Positions 8,127 through 50,845 of a DNA stretch of 64,000 nt are shown here, in pieces. Within the stretch, counting starts at the first letter, position 1; each line of letters opens with the position of its first letter. The notes beneath the pieces were generated by a model. The model saw only the letters and a list, made by a program, of their open reading frames with translations, did no database searches and had not been told where the DNA came from. This DNA comes from Blastocystis sp. Blastoise (taxonomy: Eukaryota; Protista; Bigyra: Opalinata). A program made the position numbers and the translations under genes. The stretch spans positions 372,001 to 436,000 of the forward strand of contig JBBPEB010000021.1 in NCBI GenBank assembly GCA_039096225.1, given 5' to 3'.

Positions 8127-9164
8127 TTAATGAAAAGAAGGATAACCAGAATAATGTTTTTTATTTAAATAAGGATTGAAAATGCGTCGTTGACTATCTT
8201 GTATGATTTGATCTTGTATGATTTGTAAGATGGATTCTTTAGGTTTATCTTTTTCATCTCGTTCAATACCTTTCAATGAGACTTCTTCTTCAATAGGTAA
8301 AAACTTCTTCATTTTCTTTTCATATGTAGATACATGTTCATTAGAACGTTTAATACCACTACCTGATACTTCACCTTGTTCTTCTCGTTTCTCTTTTTCA
8401 CTATCTTCTTCTGTCCATTTCCGTTTCTTTACCATCTTATATACATTCTGTTTACTACCACAATCAGGATTAGTCCATATTGTTAAATCATCACTACCTT
8501 GTTTTAACATAAAGAATTGATGTGGATCATTCATTAATTCTTCATCTGTAAGAATTTCATTTAGATTTGATGGCATAATCTTTAATTTATCTGGTAAGAA
8601 TCCAGGATCACGTTTTAAGATTTGACTATTAATAAAGAAATGAGATACTTGACTTAATATAGATTGATTGGTAACATCTGTATGACTTTGAAGACATATA
8701 ATAGCATTCTGTTTATAATGACGACCTTTAGATAATATAGATACAATCAATTGTTTGGTTTGTCTAGATAATGGATAGATATCATCCAATACAATGAAAT
8801 TATGTTCTGGTAATTTATATGTATTGACTAATTCATCAACAGTTTTAATCTTTTTAAATTTATCATCTACAGAATCATACCATTTATAATCAATTCCAGC
8901 ATGTTCACAAATATCTTGAAAGGATGTATAACATTCATTCTTATTGGATGCATCAGGACAAATTACTGTGACTTGTTTATATTTATTTTTAAGATCCATA
9001 GAACATAAGAGGTTCACAGTTAAGAAAGATTTTCCTGAGAATGTTCTTGCAATAATCAATATGAATTTTGATTCATATGTTTTATGATGGGATTTTCCAT
9101 ATTTAAATTCTAAGACTCCACATCCTTTATGTGTTTCTTTTAATGGATTTATTTTATTCACCAT
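8127..9164 (-). CDS. A32-like (FtsK/HerA) genome-packaging ATPase
   Basis: Walker A ARTFSGKS, Walker B FIVLDD, A32-type motif LSKGRHYKQNAIICLQS. Confidence 0.9.
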   Translation of the reverse strand: MVNKINPLKETHKGCGVLEFKYGKSHHKTYESKFILIIARTFSGKSFLTVNLLCSMDLKNKYKQVTVICPDASNKNECYTSFQDICEHAGIDYKWYDSVDDKFKKIKTVDELVNTYKLPEHNFIVLDDIYPLSRQTKQLIVSILSKGRHYKQNAIICLQSHTDVTNQSILSQVSHFFINSQILKRDPGFLPDKLKIMPSNLNEILTDEELMNDPHQFFMLKQGSDDLTIWTNPDCGSKQNVYKMVKKRKWTEEDSEKEKREEQGEVSGSGIKRSNEHVSTYEKKMKKFLPIEEEVSLKGIERDEKDKPKESILQIIQDQIIQDSQRRIFNPYLNKKHYSGYPSFH

Positions 9165-9233: not shown

Positions 9234-9899
9234 TTAAGATGCAGTAAAGTATATATAAAGATTTGTATTTGATAAATCAATTGGATTATTTAATTGATCA
9301 TATACTTCCCATTGGATATCTGTATATTTACCATCAATACATGGAATAGATAAATCACTTAAAGCAAATGTATTATCAAATCCTTGTTTAGCATATAAAG
9401 GAATAGAAATCAAATCATTATCTTTATTAATAATATCACAATACACACGTAACATATAGATCTTATACCATGAAATATTATTAGATATATATTCATCACT
9501 GTAAGTAATTGGTGTATTAAAGTATTCATCATCTAATCCTAAATAATAAAAGAATTCTTTATTACTAAGACTTCTTCTGAATCCACTATACGTACCAAAT
9601 GTTTTTGTTTCTTTATCATAATAGAATGCACTCGTTTGTCCAGATACAGATATTGTCATCTTCTTACCAAGTTCAATTAATTTCTCAAAGAATTCTTCCA
9701 ATGAATAGTTACCAGCTGGAAATGTATGTGCTGTTGCATTATTTTCAGTTATTCTGAAAGATGGGATATTAATGATATCACTTGTATTCACTAATGTATT
9801 GATATGAGTAATATTTTTACCTACTAAATCCAAAGTATAATTGAATTGTTCATGACAGATTTGACTTGTAATTTTACTTAGATGAGATATTGATGTCAT
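9234..9899 (-). CDS. Putative minor capsid (penton) protein, single jelly-roll
   Basis: FPAGNYSLEEF, LRVYCDII and IQWEVYDQLNNPIDL resemble Polinton/PLV penton motifs. Lies between the ATPase and MCP genes. Confidence 0.6.
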   Translation of the reverse strand: MTSISHLSKITSQICHEQFNYTLDLVGKNITHINTLVNTSDIINIPSFRITENNATAHTFPAGNYSLEEFFEKLIELGKKMTISVSGQTSAFYYDKETKTFGTYSGFRRSLSNKEFFYYLGLDDEYFNTPITYSDEYISNNISWYKIYMLRVYCDIINKDNDLISIPLYAKQGFDNTFALSDLSIPCIDGKYTDIQWEVYDQLNNPIDLSNTNLYIYFTAS

Positions 9900-9997: not shown

Positions 9998-11221
9998 TTA
10001 ATTGGTAGCACCATCTCTAACAAATTTAACAAATATAAAATGAGCATATAAAGTATAAGGACCAGTAACAGTTCCACCAGTATATTCAGTTAATAATGAG
10101 ATATTAACTTCACAACCACTACGCGTATTGACATCAACAACACTTGAAATAGGGAATATATAAATAGGTTGTTCATACCACTTTTCACCATTTAAAGGAG
10201 ATTGAGGATGACTATTACATCTCCAAGTATTATAAAGCATAGCATTAGGAATAATTTGTGATGGATTCGTTGTTTTATACGTAGTAGGGAAATCCGTCTT
10301 TGGTAAGATATTTTGACCACCAATTTGGAATTGACATGATTTTAATAATTCAGTTTTAATAGGAATCATGCTCTTCTCTTGATTTGTGAAGTATAACATA
10401 CAATAATCAGGTACGAAAACAACACTTCTATTGGATAAGAATTGTTGTGGAGTTGGTGTACCTGATACTGATGCTTGTGAATAAACAGGTGTAGTGAATG
10501 CAGATATCTGACAATTATTAGGAATACATTTAATCAAAGCACGTGGATCATTACCAAAATTAATATCATAAATTTGTTGAAGATGAATATAAACACGATC
10601 AAATTTCAATGCAGTGATTACAGTGGTACCGGTAAATAGATTCTTTAAATAATTTGTAACGAATTGCATCTTCAAAGATTTTACTTTAATAGCACAATCA
10701 AATGTACCAAGACCAGTAATAAGAGATAAAGGAATAATAACTTGAGCTTTTTCTTTCATTTCCATTCCAGCAATACTACTCAACGTGTTATTATATAAGC
10801 ATTCTGTCATACTATACATAGATTTATCAATTTCATCTTTACTTAATTCTTTAATAGTAACAAATTTTCTTGCTTTACTGGATTCAATAGAAGATTCAGA
10901 ATAATTAATAAGAATATCTTGACCCGTAGGAGATACAAACGTAAGATCTGTAGTAATCTTATCAATAATACTATAGATATTAGAATGTTGTACAACTGAA
11001 GATGTTGAATTTTTGTCTCTAGTACCAGTAATATTGAAATTCAGTTCTAAGAATGAATTACTGAAATCAATATAAGGGCTATCCACTGAATTATATAAGA
11101 ATTCAAATGGATAAGGTTGATTTAATAAATCTTGACTTGTAGAAACTAGAATAGGAATTTGTACAGGTTTAATAGTTTGATTTGCCTTTGAAGGTAAGAA
11201 TTGTCTTGGGAATCCTTCCAT
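9998..11221 (-). CDS. Putative double jelly-roll major capsid protein 1 (407 aa)
   Basis: Beta-rich sequence of MCP size, N-terminal YIDFSNSFLELNFNI, IIPL motif, position in the morphogenetic cluster. Confidence 0.65.
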   Translation of the reverse strand: MEGFPRQFLPSKANQTIKPVQIPILVSTSQDLLNQPYPFEFLYNSVDSPYIDFSNSFLELNFNITGTRDKNSTSSVVQHSNIYSIIDKITTDLTFVSPTGQDILINYSESSIESSKARKFVTIKELSKDEIDKSMYSMTECLYNNTLSSIAGMEMKEKAQVIIPLSLITGLGTFDCAIKVKSLKMQFVTNYLKNLFTGTTVITALKFDRVYIHLQQIYDINFGNDPRALIKCIPNNCQISAFTTPVYSQASVSGTPTPQQFLSNRSVVFVPDYCMLYFTNQEKSMIPIKTELLKSCQFQIGGQNILPKTDFPTTYKTTNPSQIIPNAMLYNTWRCNSHPQSPLNGEKWYEQPIYIFPISSVVDVNTRSGCEVNISLLTEYTGGTVTGPYTLYAHFIFVKFVRDGATN

Positions 11222-11396
11222 ATTAATAATTATGGTTTATATATTTTTTTAACAAAATAAAAATAAAAAAATAATAATATTTTATAATTATTAATTAATT
11301 TTATTTTTTATAACAAAACAAATGATTGTATTATAGAATAGAATAGAATTAATTAAACAAGTTAACGTTAAGAATAGTAAGTAAGAAATATTAAAT

Positions 11397-12890
11397 TTAA
11401 ATATCACGCACACTACGTACAGCAATCATATGTAAGGTATAAGGAGAACTATCACTTAGATCAGTAGTAGTATGTTTATAAATACCAGCATGAGAAGCTA
11501 CCTTATAAGAGGCAGTATCAGCTTCCCAATGATATTTTGTCTTTTTATCTGTTGGATCAACGTAACTTTTCCATTGACACGTTTGTCCATCAGGAACAGT
11601 GGATGAATCAATATGTTCATATTTAACATCATGAACATCAACATTACAATCGAAATTCAATTCAATACCACTATCTGATTGGATATTCATTAATGATTTT
11701 GTTGGAATAATATAAATAGGATGTTTAATCCATTCATCATATTTAAGAATAGTTTCAGGATTTGAATTATCAGCCCATAAACAATATAAATTCTTATTAG
11801 GACAAGATAAACTAGTAGTTTCTGCATTATTGAAGACATGACCTTTAGTAGTAAGATTATGATAATACATTTGAGTAGGGAATTCAGTTTGAGGGAACAT
11901 TTGAACATCACCAATCAAACAACTTTGATATGTTGGCCATACATTTGGACTAGCTATATTACTAATAGTTGTTGAACTATACCCATTTGTAAACCAAAAT
12001 AATATATATTCAGGTATAAATGGTAAAGCTCTATTGATATTGAAATGATTAGTAGTTAATCTTGTATTTTGATAATCAACTTGAATACATGTAGGTATAG
12101 TTTTATATAATTCATTCGATTGGAACTGAATATCTTTATAAGTCATTAAATTCATAGTAGCTGATTCAATCTTGAATGTACTAAACCATTTTTCATCATC
12201 TAAATGTAACCATTCGGTAGTTTTGGTAGCAGTACCATTCTTGAAATAAATACTCATTTTATTATCAATTAATGATTCAATAGTACTAGTTCTAAATAAC
12301 ATATTGAAATGTTTAGTTAATATTAAAGAATCTCCATCAACACCTAAACCACTAATAAGATATAAAGGAATAGCAATATGAATAGATTCATTTGGATGTG
12401 CACGTATATAACGAATAGAATTCAATTCATAAGTATCTGCAGATAAATCTTCACCATACATAGATTTTTCTAAATCATTCTTACTGATATCTTTTAATAA
12501 AATCATTTTACGACCACGAGAAGCATGTGTACAATTTTCTTCATATTTTAAAGCACGATCAGATCCATCAGGTAATGTATAAACCATTTCAACATCAGTA
12601 GTATCAATAATAGAATAAATATTAGCTTTCTGAACTAATTGATCCAAGAAATATTGACATAATTGATCATAGGTGAAACTAGCAGAAGTACCTGTTTCAT
12701 CTAAATAAACAGAAACTGGTCCAGCTTTATCTGTTACAGTTGCCTTGACAGTAAGATCCAAATAGGATTGATTGAAATTGATATAAGTATTATCCACATT
12801 AGTCCAATGATATTGAAAGATATAAGGACTAGATAGAATATCAGTATTGCTTTGAATAGGAATATTATCTTTAATTCTTAAGATTCTCAT
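11397..12890 (-). CDS. Putative major capsid protein paralog 2 (497 aa)
   Basis: Collinear similarity to 9998-11221 (NIYSIID, KSMY, IPLxLIxGLG, FxPxYxxxxFTN, PxTxFPT, PIYIxP, PYTL) with insertions. Confidence 0.65.
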   Translation of the reverse strand: MRILRIKDNIPIQSNTDILSSPYIFQYHWTNVDNTYINFNQSYLDLTVKATVTDKAGPVSVYLDETGTSASFTYDQLCQYFLDQLVQKANIYSIIDTTDVEMVYTLPDGSDRALKYEENCTHASRGRKMILLKDISKNDLEKSMYGEDLSADTYELNSIRYIRAHPNESIHIAIPLYLISGLGVDGDSLILTKHFNMLFRTSTIESLIDNKMSIYFKNGTATKTTEWLHLDDEKWFSTFKIESATMNLMTYKDIQFQSNELYKTIPTCIQVDYQNTRLTTNHFNINRALPFIPEYILFWFTNGYSSTTISNIASPNVWPTYQSCLIGDVQMFPQTEFPTQMYYHNLTTKGHVFNNAETTSLSCPNKNLYCLWADNSNPETILKYDEWIKHPIYIIPTKSLMNIQSDSGIELNFDCNVDVHDVKYEHIDSSTVPDGQTCQWKSYVDPTDKKTKYHWEADTASYKVASHAGIYKHTTTDLSDSSPYTLHMIAVRSVRDI

Positions 12891-12977: not shown

Positions 12978-15416
12978 ATGGAACTTGATGATGATAATTA
13001 TGAAGAACAGACTTCATTAGAAGAGAAGGATACTCGTATTAAAACACATATAGTCCCTATTGATGTTCGATGTATTGATAATCAATTCAATATACATTTA
13101 TCGAATTCTATTGATATCACTAAAAATATCATTTCTTATATTGATCTTAATTTAATTGGTAGTGAAAGTGTGCCTCTATTTGATACTTTCACAAAAACAC
13201 AAATATTCAAATATATAAATACTCAAGTCAATGGTAATAATTATATATATACAATCACTTTAGATCAGAAAAATTATTCAATTCCACAATTATTAGAACT
13301 ATGTCATTTTGATGTATGTGATAGACCAGTAATAAAAGATTCTCCAGATATTGATCCTTCTGTTAAAATTAATGAAGCCCCTACAATAACCATTGATAGA
13401 GATGATTGGTATTGTGAAATTACAATTTATAATAAAAGACGTGGTTTTTACTTTCCAAAAGGTACTTATACGGATATAGAGTTTTGGTGGATAGCTGTAT
13501 GTTGTGTATCAGCTAAATGGGGTGATAAATTTAATCGTTTAATGATGAGATATGATGATGATACTATAACCATATATCGACCTCAATTAAATTCTTATAA
13601 TGTTCCTGTTACATCAACAGGAATCTATGAATTGAATGAATTCTTTACTGATGGTGTGAGTGATCATTCAAGTTATATTGTTCCAACACAAGGTTCTAAT
13701 GGAATTATGAAATGTGTATTAGCTGATGAACATAAATTTTATTTCCAATGGTCAAGTAACAATGTACTCAATTTAGAAAATCAATTATTCACTGGCTTGT
13801 TTAAAGATTCAGAAACATTGACATATACTTCACTTCAAGAGAAAATTACATTAAATAGAATTAAAAGAACAGTCTTTGTGGAAGATGGATATAATACAAT
13901 GATTGTTCGACAATTAAGTGGACCAGGTGGTCGAATTGAAACTACATACACAATGCCTCCAGGAGAATATACTGAACAAGAATTCTATGATTTATTAGAA
14001 AGTTCAATCAATGGATCTCCTGAAACATATTACTTCGAAATATCAAAAGATGCTCAAACGATGGACAATAAAGATGGATATATAATATATTTATCATGGC
14101 AAGGTTATGATTCATACACATTTACATTTACAGCTACAGATATAGAACATTCATTATTTAAATATCGTGGTGCTCTACATAATATACGTCCTGATCTTGT
14201 TTATGATGAACAAGGATGTTTTGCATGGCATATATCTTATGGGAAACAATTATTACCAGACATTATACCAGATTTGAATACACTTGATTTAGATGGTAAT
14301 TATAAGTGTTATACCGATAGTCATTATTTGGATTTCTCTCAAGCACAAGAATTAGGTGAAATCTTAGGTTATAGTAAATTATACTATAATGATGCAAATA
14401 GTTATTATGGTATTCATAATATTGATAGTAGTCGTCCAAAGGGAATGTTAATAGCTCAATCGAATATAGTAGATAATAGTCAGAATTCTTTATATTCATT
14501 TAATGTGAATAATTATAAAGGCAATAATGAATTTCATGATATTATGAATATTAATGTGTCTCCTTATTTAAATACTATACAAGATATTATTATACGATAT
14601 ACTGATAAGAATAAACAATATGTGAATTTCAATGATAATTGTATTTTAAGAGGATTCTTAGAATTCTCAGATACAGTAGATACGATTCAACCAAGTGAAA
14701 CTATTAAGAAATTATGTTTGAATTGTCAAACAGCAGACACACAATTCTATGCTGAATATCCTACATTGAATATCCAGAATAAGATCTTAAAAGATATTAT
14801 TATTCAGAATGATACTGATACGATCCAAACAAATGCATCTAAATTATGTACTGGATATATAAATGGATCTTATTATCCTACATTTAGTTTTCCTTTATCG
14901 GATAAATATGTTACATATAGTAATATAAATTCTCCAATTACAATTGATCATCATATAGATTTAAGATTTGATGAATTATTCAAAGGAAATATCATTTGTA
15001 ATATATGTGAACCTAATGGTAGTGATATACGTTTCAAAGCTTATGATGAAATATATTGTGATTTTAGTACAAGTAAGAATCTAATTTATGAATTGAAGAA
15101 AACCAATGTATATGGATATCAATATTTAACAAATATACAAATTATATCAGTGTATGGTCAATCCACTGATTACTTATATCCTATTTCATTAAGATGTTTT
15201 ACTAATGAATATGAGAATAATATTCATGTTATTGATACTACAAATCTACCTTATTACTATTCGAATGGTATTAAATATGAAGGTATATCGAATAAGATTA
15301 ATAAGAATGTTTATTATTGTAATCGTAAATTATTAAAGTTATTACCTCATGATAATATGTTCTTTATAACATGTGATTATCCTTGTGTTGTTTTATTAAC
15401 TATCTCTTATATATAA
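12978..15416 (+). CDS. Large penton-like/vertex protein with repeated inserted domains (812 aa)
   Basis: Motifs DQKNYSIPQL, PKGTYTDIEF and PPGEYTEQEF echo PAGNYSLEEF of the small penton. IIIRYTDKNKQYVNFN parallels IQWEVYDQLNNPIDL. Confidence 0.5.
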   Translation: MELDDDNYEEQTSLEEKDTRIKTHIVPIDVRCIDNQFNIHLSNSIDITKNIISYIDLNLIGSESVPLFDTFTKTQIFKYINTQVNGNNYIYTITLDQKNYSIPQLLELCHFDVCDRPVIKDSPDIDPSVKINEAPTITIDRDDWYCEITIYNKRRGFYFPKGTYTDIEFWWIAVCCVSAKWGDKFNRLMMRYDDDTITIYRPQLNSYNVPVTSTGIYELNEFFTDGVSDHSSYIVPTQGSNGIMKCVLADEHKFYFQWSSNNVLNLENQLFTGLFKDSETLTYTSLQEKITLNRIKRTVFVEDGYNTMIVRQLSGPGGRIETTYTMPPGEYTEQEFYDLLESSINGSPETYYFEISKDAQTMDNKDGYIIYLSWQGYDSYTFTFTATDIEHSLFKYRGALHNIRPDLVYDEQGCFAWHISYGKQLLPDIIPDLNTLDLDGNYKCYTDSHYLDFSQAQELGEILGYSKLYYNDANSYYGIHNIDSSRPKGMLIAQSNIVDNSQNSLYSFNVNNYKGNNEFHDIMNINVSPYLNTIQDIIIRYTDKNKQYVNFNDNCILRGFLEFSDTVDTIQPSETIKKLCLNCQTADTQFYAEYPTLNIQNKILKDIIIQNDTDTIQTNASKLCTGYINGSYYPTFSFPLSDKYVTYSNINSPITIDHHIDLRFDELFKGNIICNICEPNGSDIRFKAYDEIYCDFSTSKNLIYELKKTNVYGYQYLTNIQIISVYGQSTDYLYPISLRCFTNEYENNIHVIDTTNLPYYYSNGIKYEGISNKINKNVYYCNRKLLKLLPHDNMFFITCDYPCVVLLTISYI

Positions 15417-15975: not shown

Positions 15976-17772
15976 ATGCAATCAACAGGTTATTCAGATA
16001 AAGATTGTGAAGAATTCTTTACAAATTGTATAGATCAATTATTACATTGGAAGAAAATACAATTATCAACAAGTATAAATTGGAAGAAATGGATCAAGAC
16101 AATATGTAAGAAATTTCGTAATGAAGAACGAATTCAAATAGATGATATGGAAGAACCATTCTTTTGTGTAGAAGTGTTAACAGATCCATTTCAATTTCAA
16201 AATGTTATGCAACATACACAAACAGAAGCTCCTGGACAACAAGGTGGATTATCCAATACTACAGTAGCTAATTATATGCAAATGATTACTTATATAATGA
16301 AGAATATATCTATTTGTACAGATGATGAAGATATCATTAATTATAAAGCATTTACTCCACAAAATATAAAGAAATGGGAACATTTATGGGGTTCTTTACA
16401 AATTGATGCTACTTATTCAAGACATTATGAAATCACTCAGAAAATTATTAATTGTGAAGCTGATTGGGGAGAAATCATTAATATCACCAAAAAGAATTAT
16501 TTAGAGAATCCTAATGATTTATATTATGTGAATAGTTATTTATTAGTTTTAACTTATGATACATTATGTGCTCGTAATGATTATAATGATTGTGTAATCT
16601 ATACTCGTGGTCAACAAATTCCTTTATCGTTAAGAAGAACAACTAATTATATTGATTTAAATACTTTAACTATTCATGTGAATGATACAAAGAATCGATT
16701 TGAAATTGGTAAGAATGAATATCCTACTTATCAATATTTATCAGAAGAATATTTAAATGTCCTAGCTAGATCCTTACGTTTATTTCCAAGACATTATTTA
16801 TTTGTTACTGAGAATGGTGGTAAAGTACGTGATTTGAAATTTGGTGATGAATATATAAAACCACATTTAGGATGGATTTATAAAACACAACAGAATAATT
16901 CTTTAATTAATGGTTGTGATATTATAAGACATTTATTTGCTCAATATTATTATAGATTATCAAGAGAAGCACAATTCCAACATAATGATTCAGAACATGA
17001 ATCTAAAGGTGTAGAACTCTTTGAAAATTCGATTATGAAGATGTTACATAGTCAATCAACACATATGGAAAATTATATATCTCCTTATTTATCTTCTCAT
17101 TCAACTAAATTGCAAGATTTAGATAATAAAACAAGAACATTTCATATTGATATGAATAATATTACTTATACAAGAGAAATTAATCAATTGAATAAATTAT
17201 TATTTTTATGTAAACGATTTAATGATCGTATAGAACAATATGAAGAAGACTATGAAGATGTATTTGGTAAAGAGAATTTCAATATGAAATCAGAATCGAT
17301 ATTAAGTAGTCTAGAACAATATTCATCAGATAATGATACCATAATGATTACATTAAGATATTATAAAGATCTATTAAAGCATCATTATCCTGATAAAAAC
17401 GATTTAGAAAATGAATTACCTGTAGGATGTTCATTAGAATCTGAAGAAGTTCCAGATGATTCTAGAGATCGTTATAATCGTTTTATACGTAATAAACAAT
17501 TATTACCTGATCATTTACATAATAATACAACAGATTCAGAATTAACGAATACTCAAGCATCTCTTATGCAACAGAATACTCAAGATGAAAACTCTACACC
17601 TATAGTTATGAATAATTCAGATACTTATGCATTACGTAGTCTTTCTACTATGCCTCCTTTAGAACCTATTCATCGTGGTCATGGTTTATTGAAAAAACAT
17701 AAAAGTAATGCATTCTTTAAAGTCAAAGTCCCTAAAAAGCATTTTCATGGAATTCAATTTAAATTTTATTAA
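15976..17772 (+). CDS. Tyrosine recombinase 1 (598 aa)
   Basis: Ordered catalytic motifs: R in CARNDY, K in NDTKN, DIIRHLFA, H...Y in MLHSQSTHMENY. Confidence 0.75.
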   Translation: MQSTGYSDKDCEEFFTNCIDQLLHWKKIQLSTSINWKKWIKTICKKFRNEERIQIDDMEEPFFCVEVLTDPFQFQNVMQHTQTEAPGQQGGLSNTTVANYMQMITYIMKNISICTDDEDIINYKAFTPQNIKKWEHLWGSLQIDATYSRHYEITQKIINCEADWGEIINITKKNYLENPNDLYYVNSYLLVLTYDTLCARNDYNDCVIYTRGQQIPLSLRRTTNYIDLNTLTIHVNDTKNRFEIGKNEYPTYQYLSEEYLNVLARSLRLFPRHYLFVTENGGKVRDLKFGDEYIKPHLGWIYKTQQNNSLINGCDIIRHLFAQYYYRLSREAQFQHNDSEHESKGVELFENSIMKMLHSQSTHMENYISPYLSSHSTKLQDLDNKTRTFHIDMNNITYTREINQLNKLLFLCKRFNDRIEQYEEDYEDVFGKENFNMKSESILSSLEQYSSDNDTIMITLRYYKDLLKHHYPDKNDLENELPVGCSLESEEVPDDSRDRYNRFIRNKQLLPDHLHNNTTDSELTNTQASLMQQNTQDENSTPIVMNNSDTYALRSLSTMPPLEPIHRGHGLLKKHKSNAFFKVKVPKKHFHGIQFKFY

Positions 17773-20819: not shown

Positions 20820-20905
20820 GATTATTTGACGTATAAATAATGAAAATAATTATAATACAACATTTAAAACAAATAATATATTAAAGATTCTAGAAGTCAG
20901 TTTTA

Positions 20906-21055
20906 GAAGCTTCTAGAACATTCTAGAACATTCAAGAACATTCTAGAACATTCTATAATAGTAAATATTACTTTATATTTTTAAATGTTCTAGAACCTTC
21001 AAGAACATTCTAGAACCTTCGAGAACCTTCTAGAACCTTCGAGAACCTTCTAGAA
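20906..21055. promoter_or_regulatory. Two long HSE-like arrays upstream of the primase-helicase
   Basis: 20906-20953 and 20988-21055 (14 units) keep TTCnnGAAnn periodicity with variable nn. Confidence 0.7.
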
Positions 21056-21165
21056 CATCCTTTTTATACTTTAGTGTTTTAAATGTATATACAATAAACA
21101 AAACAATTTTCAATGATTTTTTACAAGTTTATAAGTAAAAATAGAAAAATTAACAAGAAAATAAA

Positions 21166-23629: not shown

Positions 23630-23704
23630 ATTTTTAATGTTAAATTTATTTTTTATTAATATATTTGTTTTGTTTATAAATAATTTTATAATTGAAATAA
23701 AAAA

Positions 23705-25432
23705 ATGCAAAGTTGTATCTTAGGAATGCCAAGTCCTGGTACTTTTGGTATGAATTTAATTTCAACTGGAAAAGAATATAGGCGATATAATACACAACCA
23801 TTACATAAAATGGATCAATATAATCCAATATTTCATGAAATAGGTCCAAATTCATCTATGCCTGTGTCTACTTTAGAAAGTAAAGAAATACATGATGGTA
23901 AAGAAGATGATTATGTAGATCGTTCTAAAACATTTGGTAAAGATGCTGTTCCACAAGGAAATGGTGCTTTAATTCGTGCTAGAGCAGCAGGTAAAGGTGT
24001 AATGAAAGCAGCTGGTCCAGAAGAAGATAAAATAGATGGTGAAGATCGTCAATATAAAGTATTAAATCCATGTAAACCAAGACGTAAATCTGGTAGAGGA
24101 ATTATTCCAAATAAATCAGAAATCAATAAATTAGAGAATAATCAAGGTTCTGGTATTGGTGATGCAATTAAAAATAAAGTAAAAGATATGTATCAACGAA
24201 ATGTTCTAGATATAAGAGATGCTATTGTAGATAAGAAAGCTAATAGAAAAGCTCGTGATGCATTAGCTATTTTAGCTCAATATGTTGGTGATGGTCATCA
24301 TGATCTTGATGATGAATTCAAAAGATTCTATGAACATAAAATAAAACGTGGTGGAAAGATTCCTATATCAGTTGCTTCAGCAATTATGAATGCAATTAAA
24401 AATAAGAAAATGATTAAGAATCCAAAATTAAGAAGAATGTTAAGACCTTCAATTATACCAAAATATATAGATTTAGATTCAGCTCAAAGTGGTGATGGTA
24501 TATTAAGAGTTAAAAGAGGTGGTGGGTTCTGGGACTCATTTACAACTATAGCACCATCTCTTTTAGATGTAGTTGATAAAGGTATGAATTCTTTTGCTAA
24601 AGGTAGAAAAGCTTATTATGATACACATTTGGCACAACAATCAAGTGAATTAAATGATATGGAATTTGAAATGGAAAAATTAAAACGTCAACAAGCATTA
24701 AATGAAATGAAAAAACAAATAGGTAATGGTATAGTAATGGGAACAATTAATGATGGTTACGATACAGTTGAACGACAATCAGAATTATTAGATCAAGAAG
24801 TACAACCATTAAGAGATTTGCACAGTATGAAACAACAACTTAGAAAGAATCTTCCTGTTCGTCAACCACCTCCTCCAGCGGCACCCATTCGACCACAACC
24901 AGAAATTGAACCTGAATTGAATGTTGATACATTTGATATACCTCAAAATGATACACCAAGACATCCACAAACTCAACAACCTCCTCAACCTTATAAACCT
25001 ATGTCTCGTGATGAACAAAGTTATTATTATAAGATTTATGGTTTCCCTCAAAATGATAAAGAGAAAGTCGATAGAAAATGGAAAGAAGATGAAAGGGATA
25101 AACGAATAGCTGCAAGAAGAGCTAAACGTAGAGGTTATGGTGGTCGTGTTAAATTAAGTAAATCAGAATTCTTAGAACGAATGAGAAGAGGAAAAGAAGC
25201 TAAAAAGAAAAGAGGTGGTGATTTACCTCCAATAGTATCAGCTTATACAGATTTTGTAATACCTGCACAAGTAGCTCAAAGGAAACGTAAAGTAGCTAAA
25301 AATGATTTAAAACAATTACAAACAATAAAACAAAAAATGGATAATAATGAAATATTAGATAGAGGTGAGCAAATGTTTTGGAAAGAAAAGAAGTATATGT
25401 TATCAAAAAACTCAGGGGAGGGGATCTGGTAA
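23705..25432 (+). CDS. Basic core (DNA-condensing) polyprotein-like protein with many GxG/GG sites (575 aa)
   Basis: Arg/Lys-rich with about 12 motifs such as QGNGA, AGKGV, SGRGI, QGSGI, SGDGI, RGGGF, IGNGI, RGGDL, SGEGI. Confidence 0.7.
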   Translation: MQSCILGMPSPGTFGMNLISTGKEYRRYNTQPLHKMDQYNPIFHEIGPNSSMPVSTLESKEIHDGKEDDYVDRSKTFGKDAVPQGNGALIRARAAGKGVMKAAGPEEDKIDGEDRQYKVLNPCKPRRKSGRGIIPNKSEINKLENNQGSGIGDAIKNKVKDMYQRNVLDIRDAIVDKKANRKARDALAILAQYVGDGHHDLDDEFKRFYEHKIKRGGKIPISVASAIMNAIKNKKMIKNPKLRRMLRPSIIPKYIDLDSAQSGDGILRVKRGGGFWDSFTTIAPSLLDVVDKGMNSFAKGRKAYYDTHLAQQSSELNDMEFEMEKLKRQQALNEMKKQIGNGIVMGTINDGYDTVERQSELLDQEVQPLRDLHSMKQQLRKNLPVRQPPPPAAPIRPQPEIEPELNVDTFDIPQNDTPRHPQTQQPPQPYKPMSRDEQSYYYKIYGFPQNDKEKVDRKWKEDERDKRIAARRAKRRGYGGRVKLSKSEFLERMRRGKEAKKKRGGDLPPIVSAYTDFVIPAQVAQRKRKVAKNDLKQLQTIKQKMDNNEILDRGEQMFWKEKKYMLSKNSGEGIW

Positions 25433-25524
25433 AGAGTAAAGATGAGAAACTTATTCAAAATTCGATGAATTGCGATAATCCTATTATATCTGATAAAACT
25501 CGTCATGTTACTCCTAGATCCCCT
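25405..25524 (+). promoter_or_regulatory. Predicted -1 programmed ribosomal frameshift signal
   Basis: In-frame slippery heptamer A_AAA_AAC (25405-25411), 7-nt spacer, then stem AGGGGATCTGG (25419-25429) pairing with CTAGATCCCCT (25514-25524). Confidence 0.7.
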
Positions 25525-25998
25525 GATAATTTTAAACAAACTCTATCTCAATATTGTAATATACCCAATTCTTTAATATCTCAATTATATAATTATGCTT
25601 ATTTAAATAAACCTACCTCTTCTGTTGCTTGTGATCGTGCTGAAAATGTTATGAAACAATTAAATAAAACGAATTCTCAATCTTATAATTATTATAATAG
25701 TTATGATGATTTTGAACAAAATATAGATCAAGATCAAACTAAATTTAATATGATCTTTCATGAAAGTCCTAGTGATCCTTATAATGGTCATTTTGAAGCT
25801 GTTATTTATAATGGTAATAAAAATATAGAACACTATTCATCATTAGGAAATGAACCTACTTTTTCAAAATCATTTATTCAAAATCATAATATTCAATATA
25901 ATCCTATTCAACACCAAAAAACTACAAGTAATGCAAATGGTTGCTTTTATTATTCTTTACTTTATTTACTTTCTAATGGAAATCTTATGCCTTGTTAA
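25411..25998 (+). CDS. Adenain/Ulp1-like maturation cysteine protease (in the -1 frame of the core ORF; first own ATG at 25465)
   Basis: His in NGHFEAV, IEHYSSLG (usual YDSxG position), Gln and Cys in QHQKTTSNANGCFYY. Confidence 0.72.
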   Translation, partial: LRGGDLVKSKDEKLIQNSMNCDNPIISDKTRHVTPRSPDNFKQTLSQYCNIPNSLISQLYNYAYLNKPTSSVACDRAENVMKQLNKTNSQSYNYYNSYDDFEQNIDQDQTKFNMIFHESPSDPYNGHFEAVIYNGNKNIEHYSSLGNEPTFSKSFIQNHNIQYNPIQHQKTTSNANGCFYYSLLYLLSNGNLMPC

Positions 25999-26342
25999 AA
26001 CATTCTAGAATATTCTAGAATCTTTAATTTATTATATTAATATTTTGTATAATTAATTTGTTTTGTTTAATATTTAATACTATTATGACAAAGAAACGAT
26101 TTGGCAATTACTACTTAGATCGTAGTGCAGAAACTTTAGAGAATGTAAATGAAATACTGTCAGTTATTGAAATTGTTCTTATTATTATATATATTTTACT
26201 TTACTTTTATATGTCCAAGAAACGTTCTAGAACATTCTAGAACATTCATTTTGAACTGGCTCTATTTGTAGAATCTTTAATTTATTATATTAGTGTTTTA
26301 TATAATTAATTTGTTTTGTTTAATCATTGGTTAATTTAAATA

Positions 26343-26790: not shown

Positions 26791-27726
26791 TTATTCAATT
26801 AATTTTTTAAATAAATTATTATTTTCTAAAGATACATAAGAATTAATATGTGTATAATCATTATGACATAAAGCAGAAGCAGAATTTTCTATATCTTGGA
26901 ATGTATTGGTTGTAGTTGTAGCATATAATTTTCTTAATGCATTAATGGTTAATTTTGGATGGATTTGTTTTAAATGCTTATTCACAAACCAATCAAATGC
27001 TTTAGTAGTAAATCCAGTTCTTACAGAAGATTCAAATATAAATTTACGATTTGGATTTCTTTTTAAGAGTAATTCTAGATCTTCAATCAATTCTTTTGGT
27101 GCATCTAATTGAATTGTAGAGTATTTACCAGCAGTTTTATAATCATTTAATAGAATAGAACCAGTATGTTTCTCTTTATCATAAACAATATAATTCTTAT
27201 GAATAGCTGGATCAATAGTATCTTCTGGTGATAGAATGAATAATTGAGCATAATCAGCACGAGCAGGAGGAAGATAGGAGTAAAAATCTAATATTAATCG
27301 TAATGGATTATAATTTTCTAATTTATCGTGATATTCATGTAAATATGGAGTCGTAATACCATCTTTAATAAGATCTTGAATTAAAGTACGTTTCTTATTA
27401 TCCAGATATTTTTCATACATTGAATTGATAATCACATAAAATTCACACCATTTATTCAAAATACCTTCTTTATTTAATGAAGAAACATTACGTATAATAA
27501 ATAATATCAATTCACATAACGATTTCATTGGACTAATTTTGATTTTACGTTCATTTACCATATAATCCATGAATGAATAAGGATTCTTTAAGAATTCTGA
27601 GAACTTTTTAAATGGTAATGGGAAAATATATAAATTGAAATAATTAGTTAAACGTTTTTTCCAAATATCAGAATAATTTGAATTCTGTATAACCAAAAGA
27701 TACTTGTCATAATTTGTATTTTTCAT
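26791..27726 (-). CDS. Tyrosine recombinase 2 (~311 aa)
   Basis: R in PPARADY, K in DYKTAGKY, TINALRKLYAT, H...Y in LCHNDYTHINSY. First ATG at 27726. Confidence 0.88.
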   Translation of the reverse strand: MKNTNYDKYLLVIQNSNYSDIWKKRLTNYFNLYIFPLPFKKFSEFLKNPYSFMDYMVNERKIKISPMKSLCELILFIIRNVSSLNKEGILNKWCEFYVIINSMYEKYLDNKKRTLIQDLIKDGITTPYLHEYHDKLENYNPLRLILDFYSYLPPARADYAQLFILSPEDTIDPAIHKNYIVYDKEKHTGSILLNDYKTAGKYSTIQLDAPKELIEDLELLLKRNPNRKFIFESSVRTGFTTKAFDWFVNKHLKQIHPKLTINALRKLYATTTTNTFQDIENSASALCHNDYTHINSYVSLENNNLFKKLIE

Positions 27727-27814
27727 TGATTTTCTCAAGTAGAATCTCTAAAACTTCTATTTTCAAAAGAATAATACATAAGAAAATCAAAATAAAATAT
27801 CTAAGATTCTCATG

Positions 27815-27862
27815 TTCTAGAATGTTCTAGAAGTTTCGAGAATGTTCTAGAATATTCTAGAA
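27815..27862. promoter_or_regulatory. HSE-like array (10 units) upstream of tyrosine recombinase 2
   Basis: TTCtaGAAtgTTCtaGAAgtTTCgaGAAtgTTCtaGAAtaTTCtaGAA. Confidence 0.7.
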
Positions 27863-28028
27863 AATTGATATACATCCCGCCACCTAAAACCACTGGAACA
27901 CAATTAGTTTCTCTAGTTTCCCCAATATAATTGTGTTTTTGTGTTCCAAAATCCCTCATTTTTACAATTTTAAGCAATTTGATTGGACAATTCACGATGA
28001 CGCATCCTATTTCCATAACGGTTACCCT

Positions 28029-28720
28029 TGTTTCCAAAAGTCTCTCGTTATAGTCGTGGTGGTGGGTACATCTTTTTACAAGACCACACCACCACCAGCT
28101 TTTCTTTCACCCACTATAAATACATACCTTGATCACTTTACTCTTTTTATATAAATTTTTTTATGATTATCATGACTTTTTATATTATTTATTGATCACT
28201 ATACATACATTTTTATTTTTATATATTCCCGTGATTATTTCTATTATTTCTTTTTAGATAGAACCATCCATTTCATCTTTTCTCTATATAAAGGGAGGGT
28301 CGGGGTGTGTGTTTATTTAGCACATTCTGTGCTTCTTTTCGTATTTCTTTCTGTATTCCCGTGATTATCTTACTCACTTTACCAACGATGGAGCCATTTC
28401 CCATGAATATTCCCTGTAAAGGGGAGGGTTGGACTGTGTATTTTATTTCTTTTATGATTACTATGAGTTTCTCCTTGATCACTTTACGTTTCACGTTGGA
28501 ATCGGAACACAAATAAATTAAAAATAAATAAACATGGGAAAAAATAAATACACACACACACTACCCTACACTCCCATGGTTATTTTACTTCAGAAATGTT
28601 ATTAATTCTTCCGTCGAGAACAAAAAGGGGGGATGTCTTCCCCGCTTATGGCTGCGCGCGTCGCGCAGACTCTATGCGGGGTTTGCATACCCCCTTCTGC
28701 AGTTCGAAGAACGGAAGAAT
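28029..28720 (-). repeat. Right terminal inverted repeat of the PLV
   Basis: Reverse complement of 3112-3801. Confidence 0.95.
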
Positions 28721-28844
28721 TAATACAACAAATTATGTTTAATATTTTTTAATATTATTTATAAACAAAACAAATAATTAAGTAAACAAACATCAATATA
28801 CACATTTCAACATTTTTTATGAATTAATTAAGAAAAAGAAATAA

Positions 28845-30672
28845 TCAAGATTGACTCTGAAACATTACTAAAAGTAGATAAATTAACAAAAAGTAGAAAA
28901 AAACATCACCAAAAAAATCAGATAAAACACTATTTGAAATGAAATTAGAATTATAATCGTTATTTTCACTTTCATTTGCTATTGATTCATTATCATCTGC
29001 AATTGTTATTGAAGAATCATTAATTGTAGTATCTATTTCATCTTCAATAATCATTGAATCATTTTGAATTGAAACATTATCTGTTTGTGGATTCATATAA
29101 AAAAATAAATCTCTAAATAAATTATCATCAGAATAACTAAATTTATTCTTTGTAAATAAAATATTCATAAAAGAGAAAGATCTTTCTACACTAACAGTAG
29201 TAGAAGGTAATTGAAGAATGAAAGGAATTATTTTAGAAATAGAAGGAATTTGTTTAAGAAGAGGAAAATAGAATTTTATCATTTGTTCTTTACTTATCAT
29301 ATTTTGATGAAAACATTCATTTTATTTCTTTTCATTATCAATAAAATCTTTCATTTTTGAAACACATAATAAATAATCTTTCTTCTCAATATTTGAAAAT
29401 TCAGATGAAGTGAAAGAAGGAAATGAAGAAGACATTAAGAAAGGATTGAAATATTTTACTTCATTATAAAATATCATTTGTTTCTTATTCATTGTTTTGA
29501 TTTCTTTCAATTTTAATAATGTATTCGTAAAACCTATATAATATAAATAAATAATAATAAATAATAAATATACTTTTCTTATATTCTTGAATAAATGAAG
29601 AATGAACATTTGATAAATTATTTTCTTTGCATATTTCATTCACTATCATAATTATATTATCTTTTGAATTCTTCAATTCTTCTTCAATTTCATCTATCAA
29701 ACTAGAAACATTACAACATTGAAAATTATCATTGGATAATAATTTTAATATTTCTTCAAACATTATTCCACTCTTCAAGAGAATCGACATTTCGATATGT
29801 AAAGAAGAAGATAATTGATTATCTTGAAGAATATTCAATATTTCTTTATCTTTATCACTTAACATATCCAATGTTTCTAAATATTCATAGAATGATTTCA
29901 AATATTTAAAATGTTTCAAAATATATCTTAAAGATTTATACCAAGATATCCATCGTGTTTCGACATATGAAAAGAAAGAAGAAGAAGGAATATTATTTAT
30001 CTTTAAAAAGGATAACCATAAATCATTTTTCTTTCTAAAGAAACGAAATGATGAATTAATGAGATTAATAAATGATTTAGTATTAATAAAACCATCTTTT
30101 AGTTTTTCAGCTACTAAATTAATCATATGCATAAAACATCCACAATAAATTCCATCACTAAAAATCGATTCATAATTATTACCAGCATTTCTCATAGTAT
30201 TACAATTATCAGTGTGAAACGATTTAAATTGTTTTCTTTTAATGTTCCATTCTTCTAATGTATCTTGAATGATAGAAAGATAATTATTCGATTTTTGATT
30301 TTCCATTCTTTTCAAGTTTATTAAGTAGAAAGGTTCATTCAAATTGAAAGTATTCAATCTTCTTACGATTATTGATAAATAATTAGAACCAGCATCTGAG
30401 GTAGAAGAATCACATAGAACAGCTAGAGGACATTTATCTAAACTCATTTTTACATATTGAAGACGTTCATCATACAATTTAGGTATAATTCGTTTTTGAA
30501 TAGTATTATAACAAGGCATATTATTATTATTCATTTCAAATATATTTTTCAATTTCATTCTAAATTGAGGTTTCTTAAATTTATTAATAGGAATACATTC
30601 TTCCAAGAATAATTCTATTAATTTTTCAAATCTTATATAATTCACATTAGATTCAATAATTCTATTTTTAAT
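28845..30672 (-). pseudogene. 5'-truncated hAT transposase pseudogene
   Basis: Nearly identical to 33709-35543. GAA>TAA nonsense at 29322-29324, diverged C-terminus, truncated at 30672 by another element end. Confidence 0.88.
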
Positions 30673-30993
30673 TAGAGCGGTTTAAAAGTAGCGAAAAAGT
30701 TGCGACAAGTTGCGACAGTTGCGACACTTTTTATATGTTATTTATAAGCCATGTATTTATTATATTTTATATTTAAATATATAATTATAAAGATTATTTC
30801 ATGATGATTACATAAATAATTTTTAAATAAATTTAGAAAAAGTCTAATTACCTTAATAACCGTTTTAAACACTAAAAATTGAAATTTTTAAATTTCATAA
30901 GAAAAATTCATTAGATAAATATATAAATTTTTACTATATTTGTATTCTTTTAACGATTTTTTAAATATTATATTATTTTTATACTATCAAAAT
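30673..30993 (-). mobile_element. Truncated right end of a non-autonomous hAT-family element
   Basis: Starts TAGAGCGGTT with GTTGCGACA repeats; similar to the reverse complement of ~31872-32194. Confidence 0.8.
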
Positions 30994-32194
30994 CAGAGCG
31001 GTTCAAAAGTTGCGACAAATCGAGTTGCGACAAATTTCACAACTTGTCGCAACTTGTCGCAATTTGTCGCAACTTTTTTAACCATGAATAATGGCGAGAG
31101 TACCGTGATTATTTTATTAATTTGGCAATTAAAAATGACTTGTTTAAAGAATGAATTCAGTGTCGCAATTTGTCACAACTTTGTCACAACTTTTCATTTA
31201 AACATTTATTTAATTAATATTTTATAGAATACAATATTTCATTATATGAACTAAGTAGTGATGAATATATATACCAAATTTCATTTTATAAAAATGAAAA
31301 GATCATATGAAATGAATTAAAGAAAGAATTCAAAATATTTTGAATAATTTTTTTCCAGTCAAAAAATTGATTTATTTACGGGATAAAACTATTTTTGACT
31401 CATTTTTGAAGTTCATTTTTTAATGACAATTCAAATGAATTTCAATTTTCTTTTCTTCGCATTATTTATCCATTTTCAATTGAAATCATAGTTTGTATTA
31501 TTTATAGTATTTAATAATGTGAATGATTTCATTAATACATTGATTTTAGATCTTTTTGAAATGATTTATTTTTTATCAACTCATTTTATCATCTAATTAA
31601 GCATAATATATTTATAATTGACTCTTAATTATCATATAGATACATATTTATATCATAATGATTCATTATATGATGTTTAATGAAGAATGTTAAAAATTGA
31701 ATTTTGATGAAATGAAATTATTTGAATATATATGTTATCAATAACTCATTATTAGTTCATTATGAAGAAATGAATCATTTTAAAAATACTTTTTATAGTT
31801 AATGAGTTCATTTTATCTTCAATGAAGCTTTTATGACATTCAATTTTTCACTTTTTATATTTAATAACATTATTTTGATAGTATAAAAATAATATAATAT
31901 TTTAAAAATCGTTAAAAGAATTAAAAAATGATTAAAATAAGTATATTTATCTAATGAATTTTTCTTATGAATTTCAAAAATTTCATTTTTTTTGTGTTTA
32001 AAACGCTTATTAAGAGTATTAAACTTATTATTAATTTATTTAAAAATGATTTATGTAATCATCATGAAAATATCTTTATAATTATATATTTAATTATATA
32101 ATATAATAAATATATGACTTACAAATGAGATATAAAAAGTATCACAACTGTCTTAACTTGTCGCAACTTTTGTCGCAACTTTTGAACCGCTCTA
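30994..32194 (+). mobile_element. Non-autonomous hAT-family element (~1.2 kb)
   Basis: (C)AGAGCGGTTCAAAAGTTGCGACA...TGTCGCAACTTTTGAACCGCTCTA termini. Left ~200 bp resembles the autonomous copy. No ORF and no matching TSD. Confidence 0.82.
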
Positions 32195-32202
32195 GATAAG
32201 AT

Positions 32203-32604
32203 ATTCAATTTTTCACTTTTTATATTTAATAACATTATTCTTATAATATAAAAATAATATAATATTTAAAAAATCGTTAAAAGATTGTTAAAATGATTAA
32301 AATAACGATATTTATAGAATAAATTTGACTTTTAAAAATTCAATTTTTAGTGTTTAAAACGCTTATTAAGACTATTAAACTCATTTTTAATTCATTTAAA
32401 AATTATTTATGTAATCATCATGTAAATCTCTTTATAATTATATATTTAAATATAAAATATAATAAATATATGGTGTACAAATGAGATATAAAAAGTGTCG
32501 CAACTTGTCGCAACTTGTCGCAACTTTGTCGCAACTTGTCACAACTTTTTCGCAACTTTTGTCGCAACTTGTCGCAACTTTTGTCGCAACTTTTGAACCG
32601 CTCT
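32203..32604 (+). mobile_element. Additional right end of the non-autonomous hAT-family element
   Basis: Repeats ~31838-32194 and ends GAACCGCTCTA after a longer TTGTCGCAAC array. Confidence 0.8.
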
Positions 32605-32755
32605 AAATATATATTAAATATTTTTTTCATAACTCTTCAACATTATGGAATGTGCTCATCAACAATGCTTTCTGCGAAATCAAGCAATATTTTTTACTCT
32701 TATGTTGTATAGATTAGCAATTTCTGGAAATAAATTAGCTACTCAATATCTTATC

Positions 32756-35751
32756 TAGAGCGGTTCAAAAGTTGCGACAAATCGAGTTGCGACAAATTTC
32801 ACAACTTGTCGCAACTTGTCGCAATTTGTCGCAACTTTTTTTACCCCGAGTATATCGAGAGTCCCGTGATTATTTTATTAATTTGGCAACTAATTAAGAC
32901 TTGTTTAAAAAAAGAATTCAGTGTCGCAATTTGTCACAACTTTGTCACAACTTTTCATTTAAACATATATAGACCTATTTTACATTTATATAAAATATGA
33001 TAATTTATGAAATTCATAGTGGTGAATATAATAAGCATCAAGAATTATTTAAATACTTAATTCAAACAAAGAAAAACATTAAAAATACTTTTCAAAAAAT
33101 CATGAATATTTTTTTTACAGTCAAAAAAATGAAATATTCACGGGAGATTATTAATTTTCAGTCATTTTAAAACGTATAAATAATTGAAAGAAATCATCTC
33201 ATTTTCATTAATTTATATTTCTATATAAATCGTTCTTTCAATATAGATTCATTCATCTATTCATAAAGTCTTCTTTAATACTCATTTCTATCAATAAAAT
33301 ATCATTCTAAGAATCAAAAGAAGTATATATATGTATTCATCATTCTTAATTATCTTTAGATATGGTTAAAAAAACAATGAAACAATCTAATAATCATAAA
33401 GTGAAAAGAAAAGAAAAGAAGAAGTCTTCATCTACTAAGAAAAGTGAGAATGTTAGAACGAGAATCTACAAAATGAATCCAATAAGTCGTTTAACAAAAA
33501 TAAAATTATCATCAAGTATGAATGAAGAAGAAAAGAAATGTTTTATATCAAAGAATAATAATCTTCGTTGTATTTATTGTAATTGTATTGTAGATCATAA
33601 AAGATTATCTTCTATTAATAAACATCTCAATACTGATATGCATATTTCTAATATGAATTCATTCATGAAAGAAAAGTCTTCTACTGTACCTTCTATAAAG
33701 AAAACTAATATTAAAAATAGAATTATTGAATCTAATGTGAATTATATAAGATTTGAAAAATTGATAGAATTATTCTTAGAAGAATGTATTCCTATTAATA
33801 AATTTAAGAAACCTCAATTTAGAATGAAATTGAAAAATATATTTGAAATGAATAATAATCATATGCCTTGTTATAATACTATTCAAAAACGAATTATTCC
33901 TAAATTATATGATGAACGTATTCAATATGTAAAAATGAATTTAGATAAATGTCCTCTAGCTGTTCTATGTGATTCTTCTACCTCAGATGCTGGTTCTAAT
34001 TATTTATCGATAATCGTAAGAAGATTGAATACTTTCAATTTGAATGAACCTTTCTACTTAATAAACTTGAAAAGAATGGAAAATCAAAAATCGAATAATT
34101 ATCTTTCTATCATTCAAGATACATTAGAAGAATGGAATATTAAAAGAAAACAATTCAAATCGTTTCACACAGATAACTGTAATACTATGAGAAATGCTGG
34201 TAATAATTATGAATCGATTTTTAGTGATGGAATTTATTGTGGATGTTTTATGCATATGATTAATCTAGTAGCTGAAAAACTAAAAGATGGTTTTATTAAT
34301 ACTAAATCATTTATTAATCTTATTAATTCATCATTTCGTTTCTTTAGAAAGAAAAATGATTTATGGTTATCCTTTTTAAAGATAAATAATATTCCTTCTT
34401 CTTCTTTCTTTTCTTATGTTGAAACACGATGGATATCTTGGTATAAATCATTAAGATATATTTTGAAACATTTTAAATATTTGAAATCATTCTATGAATA
34501 TTTAGAAACATTGGATATGTTAAGTGATAAAGATAAAGAAATATTGAATATTCTTCAAGATAATCAATTATCTTCTTCTTTACATATCGAAATGTCGATT
34601 CTCTTGAAGAGTGGAATAATGTTTGAAGAAATATTAAAATTATTATCCAATGATAATTTTCAATGTTGTAATGTTTCTAGTTTGATAGATGAAATTGAAG
34701 AAGAATTGAAGAATTCAAAAGATAATATAATTATGATAGTGAATGAAATATGCAAAGAAAATAATTTATCAAATGTTCATTCTTCATTTATTCAAGAATA
34801 TAAGAAAAGTATATTTATTATTTATTATTATTTATTTATATTAAATAGGTTTTACGAATACATTATTAAAATTGAAAGAAATCAAAACAATGAATAAGAA
34901 ACAAATGATATTTTATAATGAAGTAAAACATTTCAATCCTTTCTTGATGACTCCTTCATTTCCTTCTTTTACTTTATCTGAATTTTTAAATATAGAAAAG
35001 AAAGATTATTTATTATGTGTTTCAAAATTGAAAGATTTTATAGATAATGAGAAGAAAGAAAATGAATGTTTTCCTCAAAACATGGTAAGTAAAGAACAAA
35101 TGATAAAATTTTATTTTCCTCTTCTTAAACAAATTCCTTCTATTTCTAAAATAATTCCTTTCATTCTTCAATTACCTTCTACTACTGTTAGTGTAGAAAG
35201 ATCTTTCTCTTTTATGAATATTTTATTTACAAAGAATAAATTTGGTTATTCTGATGATAATTTATTTAGAGATTTATTTTTCTATATGAATCCACAAACA
35301 GATACTATTTCAATTCAAAATGATTCAATGATTATTGAAGATGAAATAGATACTACAATTAATGATTCTTCCATGACAATCATAGATGATAATGAAATAT
35401 TATCAAATGAAAGTGAAAATGAAGAAAAAAATGCGAATTTCAATTCAAATAGTGTTTTATCTGATTCTCTTGATGATATTTTATCAATTTCTTTTGATAA
35501 TTTATCTACTTTCAGTAATGTTTCAGAGATCAATCTTGATTAAACTATTTCTTAACTTATTTATAATTTATATTTTATATGCTTTATTTATGTTTTCTTT
35601 ATTAAAAATTAGTTTTGTTTATAAAAATAGTGTTTAAAATGTGTCGCAACTTGTCGCAACTTGTCGCAACTTTGTCGCAACTTGTCGCAACTTTTTCGCA
35701 ACTTTTGTCGCAACTTGTCGCAACTTTTGTCGCAACTTGTGAACCGCTCTA
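32756..35751 (+). mobile_element. Complete autonomous hAT DNA transposon (~3.0 kb)
   Basis: TIRs TAGAGCGGTTCA...TGAACCGCTCTA, subterminal TTGTCGCAAC arrays, perfect 8-bp TSD ATCTTATC (32748-32755 and 35752-35759). Confidence 0.95.
33362..35543 (+). CDS. hAT transposase, two exons (intron 34809-34848), ~713 aa
   Basis: N-terminal Zn finger CIYC...H...H; DDE motifs LCDSST, TDNCNTM, SVERSFS; CFMH; TRW. Removing the 40-nt GT-AG intron joins the two ORFs in frame. Confidence 0.9.
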
Positions 35752-39789: not shown

Positions 39790-43650
<3,861 letters not shown>

Positions 43651-43737
43651 ATTATCTACAGCAATGTAACTTAACTAAAAGACAGCTAAGAAAAAAAAAA
43701 TAATGTTGACAAAAACAATGATTAGAAAAAGCATTGA

Positions 43738-46654: not shown

Positions 46655-50845
<4,191 letters not shown>

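Follow-up and report, generated by a model that had tools for sequence, protein, structure and literature searches.

A predicted −1 frameshift site between a core-like precursor and a clan CE protease in a Polinton-like element of Blastocystis

A 64,000-nucleotide (nt) stretch of contig JBBPEB010000021.1 from Blastocystis sp. Blastoise (hereafter the window) carries an endogenous Polinton-like element in which two open reading frames (ORFs), one for a core-like precursor (23705-25432, + strand) and one for a protease (25411-25998, + strand), are probably linked by a programmed −1 ribosomal frameshift. In the mechanism that we propose, both ORFs would lie on one mRNA and overlap in the −1 frame at the heptamer A_AAA_AAC. 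A three-helix stem 7 nt downstream would cause a minority of ribosomes to slip back by one base and to make a core-protease fusion of 764 amino acids (aa), while most ribosomes would end at TAA 25430 and release the core protein alone. The fusion would bring a small, fixed dose of protease into the assembling particle, where the enzyme would likely be freed at the Gly-Gly in LRGG|DL, as at other GG/GxG precursor sites. A first-pass annotation had proposed such a −1 core-protease fusion from the letters of the window. The proposal gains support here from fused relatives, the conservation of residues ahead of ATG 25465 in the protease frame, the lack of a 3'-end motif between the two ORFs, rare codons, and the Gly-Phe-stop ends of related core proteins, all of which are sequence-based observations.

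An in-phase slippery heptamer within a long overlap

The core-like ORF encodes 575 aa in the 0 frame and ends TCA AAA AAC TCA GGG GAG GGG ATC TGG TAA. As the first-pass annotation had stated, this places A_AAA_AAC (25405-25411, + strand) in the X_XXY_YYZ phase with the core frame, with the stop codon (TAA, 25430-25432, + strand) six codons past the heptamer. The −1 frame is open from 25369, has no ATG until 25465, and continues for 195 codons from the slip site, so that the protease ORF is indeed open across it. The shifted frame reads LRGGDLVKSKDE..., which contains the LRGGDL motif noticed earlier. An in-phase heptamer and a long open −1 frame with an early 0-frame stop, both expected of a −1 frameshift site, are thus found together. 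Past the core stop there is also a 0-frame mini-ORF (25442-25468), the TGA of which overlaps ATG 25465 (ATGA).

Heptamers of the generic form are common: the + strand of the window has 491, and 23 are found in phase in the ORFs of the element, which we defined as 18 non-overlapping ORFs of at least 124 aa (four short shadow ORFs were left out). Among these 23, the heptamer at 25405-25411 alone is followed by more than 14 open −1 codons (195, and at most 14 for the others) and the fold downstream of it is the strongest of the set (−32.1, the next being −23.8). In the available text of PMC5009743, A_AAA_AAC and G_GGU_UUU are both placed among the most shift-prone heptamers, A_AAA_AAC being so named for mammalian ribosomes.

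A predicted stimulatory stem and rare codons

A 7-nt spacer (25412-25418, + strand) separates the heptamer from a predicted stimulatory stem (25419-25524, + strand). The stem consists of 11+6+6 = 23 pairs in three helices (25419-29/25514-24, 25434-39/25508-13 and 25441-46/25499-504), includes two G.U pairs, and has pair probabilities of 0.89-1.0; helices 1 and 2 are separated by a bulge that contains the core stop codon. All six arms and the spacer are where the first-pass annotation had drawn them, and the RNA folding that it had suggested as a check returned a predicted fold of −32.1 kcal/mol (z −2.96), with 2 of 200 dinucleotide shuffles as good. A stable RNA structure within 5-9 nt downstream of the heptamer is therefore predicted.

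We compared this fold with synonymous recodings in which the −1 protein was kept fixed and codons were drawn either by element usage or uniformly. None of 1500 recodings with element codon usage folded as well (mean −17.3), and 16 of 1000 did so with uniform codons. The GC content at third codon positions is 0.11 in the element, and the overlap is written in codons that are rare there: AAC (6% of Asn codons), CTC (1%), AGG (2%), GGG (3%), CTG (1%), GAG (7%) and TCC (5%). A fold beyond the needs of the protein, together with these rare codons, makes the signal at the site look selected.

The stem is not the strongest fold of the element, as 6 of 2380 folding windows taken across the element fold better, all of them in arrays of 10-nt repeats, and two coding windows nearly match it (−31.8 and −31.2). 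A pseudoknot search at the site returned only AT-rich helices of 8-9 bp, none of them convincing, and Rfam gave no match in 25200-25800. The spacer with its next base (25412-25419) could also pair with 25519-25526 in the 3' arm, an 8-bp second register that would be unavailable while a ribosome occupies the slip site.

Slippage of RNA polymerase on the A6 run could in principle produce the same protein from an edited mRNA, since one added A gives in-frame ...SKKLRGGDL. The run is only A6, however, and 17 such runs occur in the ORFs of the element. The stem at a 7-nt spacer and the Gly-Phe-stop ends of other cores (see below) also fit a ribosomal slip better, and we regard polymerase slippage as very unlikely.

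The core-like protein, the protease and their relatives

Neither the core nor the protease has a sequence match in Pfam, PHROG or PDB. We infer the name 'core' for the 575-aa ORF, in which Lys and Arg make up 19% of residues and 10 GG/GxG motifs occur, compared with 0-3 for each of the remaining 17 ORFs. Among named core proteins, the nearest are 80-99% identical to it and are annotated as Blastocystis sp. Blastoise. All 21 listed core copies, of which one (P0046 in our numbering of relatives) is identical to the window's protein, end YMLSKNSGEGIW, and none of their last 13 positions vary, as against 23 of the 58 positions before them. Two further basic ORFs of the element, at 4166-5656 and 7036-8073, contain three GG/GxG motifs each and are possible additional protease substrates.

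The core is homologous to the N-terminal 430 aa of P0019 (E 7e-27 and 2e-11), a protein of 617 aa in which the core part runs in frame into the protease; 5 of the 15 listed members of its cluster are 617 aa long. Other in-frame core-protease fusions are P0002/P0018 and P0022, although P0022, as a gene model, could conceal introns. The P0001 cluster consists of stand-alone proteases, with 15 of 15 members at 190 aa or less and called from an 'M'-K start at codon −13. The Gly at the position matching RGG|DL is kept in all five sequences in which this position is seen.

A matched clan CE (Ulp1/adenain) fold was returned for the protease by three fold searches (model pLDDT 60). The best match had a Z of 9.0 and a root-mean-square deviation of 3.1 over 123 aligned residues, and the top 29 rows were all CE-type by their titles. 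Comparison with Atlas clusters by features likewise gave adenain-like proteins, with Peptidase_C5 leading at 0.94. In Foldseek no row reached E 0.001 with the protease model, the top viral match being a MELD virus protease (E 1.5e-3). All nine sequences compared have the His (codon 25789), Gln and Cys (codon 25942), and a Glu two positions beyond the catalytic His is likewise invariant in the family.

The intact state of these residues bears on the suggestion that the protease was disabled by a single indel in a common ancestor of the endogenous copies. Integrated elements do decay, and expression of this one is only presumed. Yet the protease ORF is intact with its His, Gln and Cys, the other ORFs and the terminal inverted repeats (TIRs) of the element are intact as well, and the site has a complete recoding signal, which leaves inactivation by an indel as the least probable of the alternatives that we weighed.

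An intron might also join the two frames. Either of two GT-AG introns, of 23 nt (25393-25415, GTATAT...CAG) or of 125 nt (25393-25517), would give a continuous reading frame, and host introns in the window also use the GTATAT donor. Moreover, a related lineage has gene models (P0020, P0021, P0037 and P0038) that run through both ORFs, seemingly by way of introns. These models look forced, however. Their junctions between core and protease fall at three different positions, and they take in the following gene too, a pattern that suggests a split locus pressed together by the predictor. Seven host intron sites in the window, picked by eye, are about 60-130 nt long with 8-15% GC, in contrast to 26% GC for the 23-nt and 34% GC for the 125-nt version, and the longer version would remove the conserved SKDE...CDNPI segment. 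Given further that 21 of 21 core models are unspliced at the site and that LSKK is retained at the corresponding position of fused P0019, we consider an intron highly improbable.

Transcript layout and the start of the protease

The motif TGTTTTGTT, with at most one mismatch, is present within 100 nt 3' of 17 of the 18 element ORFs (14 exact; the hit for the ORF at 15976 is weak); the core ORF alone lacks a copy after it. Counted from the motif table, 12 of 13 head-to-tail junctions contain it, the core-to-protease junction being the exception. One copy (23666-23674, + strand) closes the gene upstream of the core ORF, and the first exact same-strand copy after the core start lies past the protease ORF (26059-26067, + strand), where a shared 3' end is predicted. 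This layout supports a single mRNA as the likely carrier of the core and protease ORFs.

We rejected a reading of TGTTTTGTT as a promoter: none of the four head-to-head starts is preceded by it, and it does follow convergent and terminal genes. Given its absence before those starts, we take it as a putative 3'-end signal. Between 4116 and 26312 there are 15 exact copies, all of them intergenic, and 7 in the rest of the window, and the signal is likely element-specific. The motif resembles what we take to be the consensus of the Blastocystis downstream gene element. Such an element has been described, but according to the available text of PMC10690189 tortoise isolates show no enrichment for it, a point against taking the two to be simply the same.

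Rather than by frameshifting, the protease could be made separately from ATG 25465, through reinitiation past the core stop or from a short mRNA of its own, in which case the overlap would be left over from an ancestral fusion. The whole catalytic domain is encoded past this ATG, forms of 177 aa are called in the P0001 cluster, and the Met is kept in three of four lineages (P0001, P0002 and P0019), a point that also speaks against the frameshift itself. In the P0020/P0038 lineage, however, Leu stands in its place. The 12 codons before ATG 25465 are conserved as well, with 5-7 of 12 identical in each of the five relatives compared, and on account of this conservation we read them as protein. 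In addition, ATG 25465 is inside the predicted stem, in GC-rich DNA unlike that of the other 17 starts (37% GC in the preceding 60 nt versus 2-22%), and separate initiation leaves the heptamer and the rare codons unexplained. We judge it unlikely.

Conservation of the signal and evidence against a frameshift

A back-translation proxy, which is a weak measure, came out in favour of the split lineages, with stem pairs allowed at 20/22, 11/13 and 14/16 positions there and at 14/23 in fused P0019. Several observations weigh against a programmed frameshift. Fused P0002 still allows 18 of 23 pairs (4 of 165 in the null), and the split lineages are closer in sequence anyway. Swapping the stem arms between split lineages, again by protein back-translation, revealed no covariation, and the DNA of the relatives was not found in viral contigs, metagenome contigs, prokaryote genomes or phage records. 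The stem is long-range, with 52 nt inside its innermost helix, and not a compact hairpin. All 20 named core copies carry the same locus-tag prefix; they come from one assembly and do not count as independent support. Finally, the acidic triad position of the protease is Ser (SSLG) in the window and in seven of seven closer relatives, with DSLG in P0066; with this residue replaced, protease activity is presumed.

To these may be added that no short read spans the heptamer (none of the 8 listed among 29 low-depth contig pieces), which would also suit a gene that is truly an in-frame fusion with A7 and was split by a systematic homopolymer error of long-read assembly. In-frame fused relatives exist, and the ORFs of the element contain only one A7 run. 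Against such an error, the window has 44 A/T runs of 7 and 30 longer ones, the other 17 ORFs are intact, and 21 of 21 copies agree. Stand-alone proteases and cores are also found in Logan/ENA records, and the rare codons and stem would lack an explanation. According to the available text of PMC10690189, assemblies of the named relatives' organism were polished with short reads. We attach little likelihood to an assembly error, and retain the programmed −1 frameshift as the probable link between the two ORFs.

A second candidate heptamer in related lineages

A search with P0019 returned nine proteins, including three stand-alone cores that belong to different 50% clusters (P0063-65). All three end Gly-Phe-stop, which is compatible with G_GGU_UUY; P0064 has about 40 extra residues before its end. 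Tripeptides able to hold any heptamer account for 154 of 2519 core tripeptides (6%) and occur at 2 of the 17 other ORF ends of the window. The Gly-Phe-stop ends predict a second slippery heptamer, G_GGU_UUY, which is a lead and not proof. If the 'M'-K start of the P0001 proteases is a TTG, it would correspond to the −1 frame past G_GGU_UUY before TGA (Gly-Phe-Leu(TTG)-Lys), with the conserved Gly kept. On the other side, no contig links P0063-65 with P0001, two of the three cores (P0063 and P0065) are related to each other, and the terminal Gly-Phe could be the remnant of a cleavage site, the core having an internal GGGF.

These lineages may represent a gut-protist Polinton-like virus (PLV) family that carries its protease as a Gag-Pro-like core fusion and switches between in-frame, A_AAA_AAC and G_GGU_UUY forms, a proposal whose chances we consider to be even. 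If true, retrovirus-style stoichiometric control of virion maturation would have evolved repeatedly in eukaryotic double-stranded DNA (dsDNA) viruses. A −1 frameshift would explain both the dosing of the maturation protease and its delivery into the particle, and the case directs attention to the precursor and to the sites at which it would be cut. Where PLV annotations show a split protease gene or none at all, the gene may be a recoded one. The site is a 140-nt cassette that is directly open to reporter assay.

Comparison with known systems

Retroviruses, RNA viruses and tailed phages make routine use of programmed −1 frameshifting. Mouse mammary tumour virus (MMTV) and human T-cell leukaemia virus (HTLV) use A_AAA_AAC at gag-pro. 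In the gag-pro of these beta- and deltaretroviruses, as in the window, a structural precursor is joined to a processing protease by frameshifting (PMC5009743). The window differs in that it holds a dsDNA Polinton-like element of a protist, with a clan CE cysteine protease in place of an aspartic one, a long three-helix stem in place of a compact pseudoknot or hairpin, and no downstream pol. The g-t genes of tailed phages are similar in being those of a dsDNA virus with a −1 slip that sets the ratio of two assembly proteins, but their hosts are bacterial or archaeal and the products are tail chaperones rather than a protease (PMC5009743).

The clan CE fold is common to the window protease and to vUlp1 of Polintons, PLVs and virophages, adenain, pS273R of African swine fever virus and I7L of poxviruses. 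These maturation proteases cut after GG or GxG and are normally encoded by separate genes. The window protease and its closer relatives differ from them in being fused or probably frameshift-linked and in having Ser at the usual acidic triad position.

The first-pass annotation had gone too far in stating that no such mechanism was described for Polintons or PLVs. In a preprint, Buck et al. used KnotInFrame to predict −1 sites in the pentons of adintoviruses and pointed to possible fusions of Hexon with Adenain, and their supplement contains at least 12 'Hexain' entries (PMC11071296). Adintovirus Penton and Hexain share with the window the broad virus group, the protease class and a predicted −1 slip. 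The Hexain partner, however, is the major capsid protein, and the case consists of a brief KnotInFrame prediction in animal-associated viruses (PMC11071296, in the text available), whereas the window has a core-like precursor as partner, with evidence from codons, motifs and fused homologues. The literature that we searched held no description of a core-protease frameshift in Polinton-type viruses, PMC11071296 being the only source that bore on it, and the word 'frameshift' is absent from the available text of PMC11161782 and 10.64898/2026.06.19.733378. The proposed mechanism is thus a known one (Gag-Pro-like), which in Polinton-type viruses had, in this literature, previously been suggested only as an untested prediction.

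The Blastocystis MELD virus of Starrett et al. (PMC8502044) shares its host genus with the named relatives of the window and is likewise a midsize DNA virus of the TIR type. In the available text it has PolB and an integrase, unlike the element studied here, in which a primase-helicase occurs together with a weak match to tyrosine recombinases.

The element and its setting

The element (3108-28724, no strand assigned) is of the Polinton-like, MELD type and spans 25.6 kb between TIRs at about 3108-3910 and 27783-28724, the arms of which are 96-99% complementary over most of their length. It is flanked by AT-rich eukaryotic DNA that contains host genes with introns. Its ORFs include ATPase, capsid, primase-helicase and recombinase-like proteins. 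Three hallmarks of Polinton-like viruses are found: a TIR-bounded genome of 15-40 kb, a double jelly-roll major capsid protein and a packaging ATPase. The capsid-like protein (9998-11221, − strand) matches Sputnik-type major capsid protein clusters in the Atlas by structure (TM 0.70); a single-sequence model of it was unusable (pLDDT 33). The likely packaging ATPase (8127-9164, − strand) matches the terminase PHROG 2666 (E 1.5e-10), and its FtsK match is weak (E 0.058). None of the 18 ORFs has a Pfam match to pPolB or to the RVE integrase, and we therefore class the element as Polinton-like, not as a Polinton (Maverick) sensu stricto.

The capsid-like gene adjoins a paralogue at 11397-12890 (29% identical, E 9e-43), the pair occupying 9998-12890. 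The ORFs at 9234-9899 and 12978-15416 have no clear family match. A 598-aa ORF at 15976-17772 appears by eye to encode a second tyrosine-recombinase-type protein, again with no family match, the other recombinase-like ORF being at 26791-27726. Arrays of near-palindromic, TTCTAGAACA-like 10-nt repeats occur in the TIRs and intergenic regions, at 3831, 20900-21080, 22900, 25999, 26221 and 27815, and form the strongest folds of the element. Beside the right TIR, at 28900-35482, are two inverted copies of a transposase-like gene that are 97% identical and hAT-like by eye. Farther along, at 39790-50845, two divergent, intron-bearing host genes are 72-79% identical over long exons and are presumably pyruvate:ferredoxin oxidoreductases.

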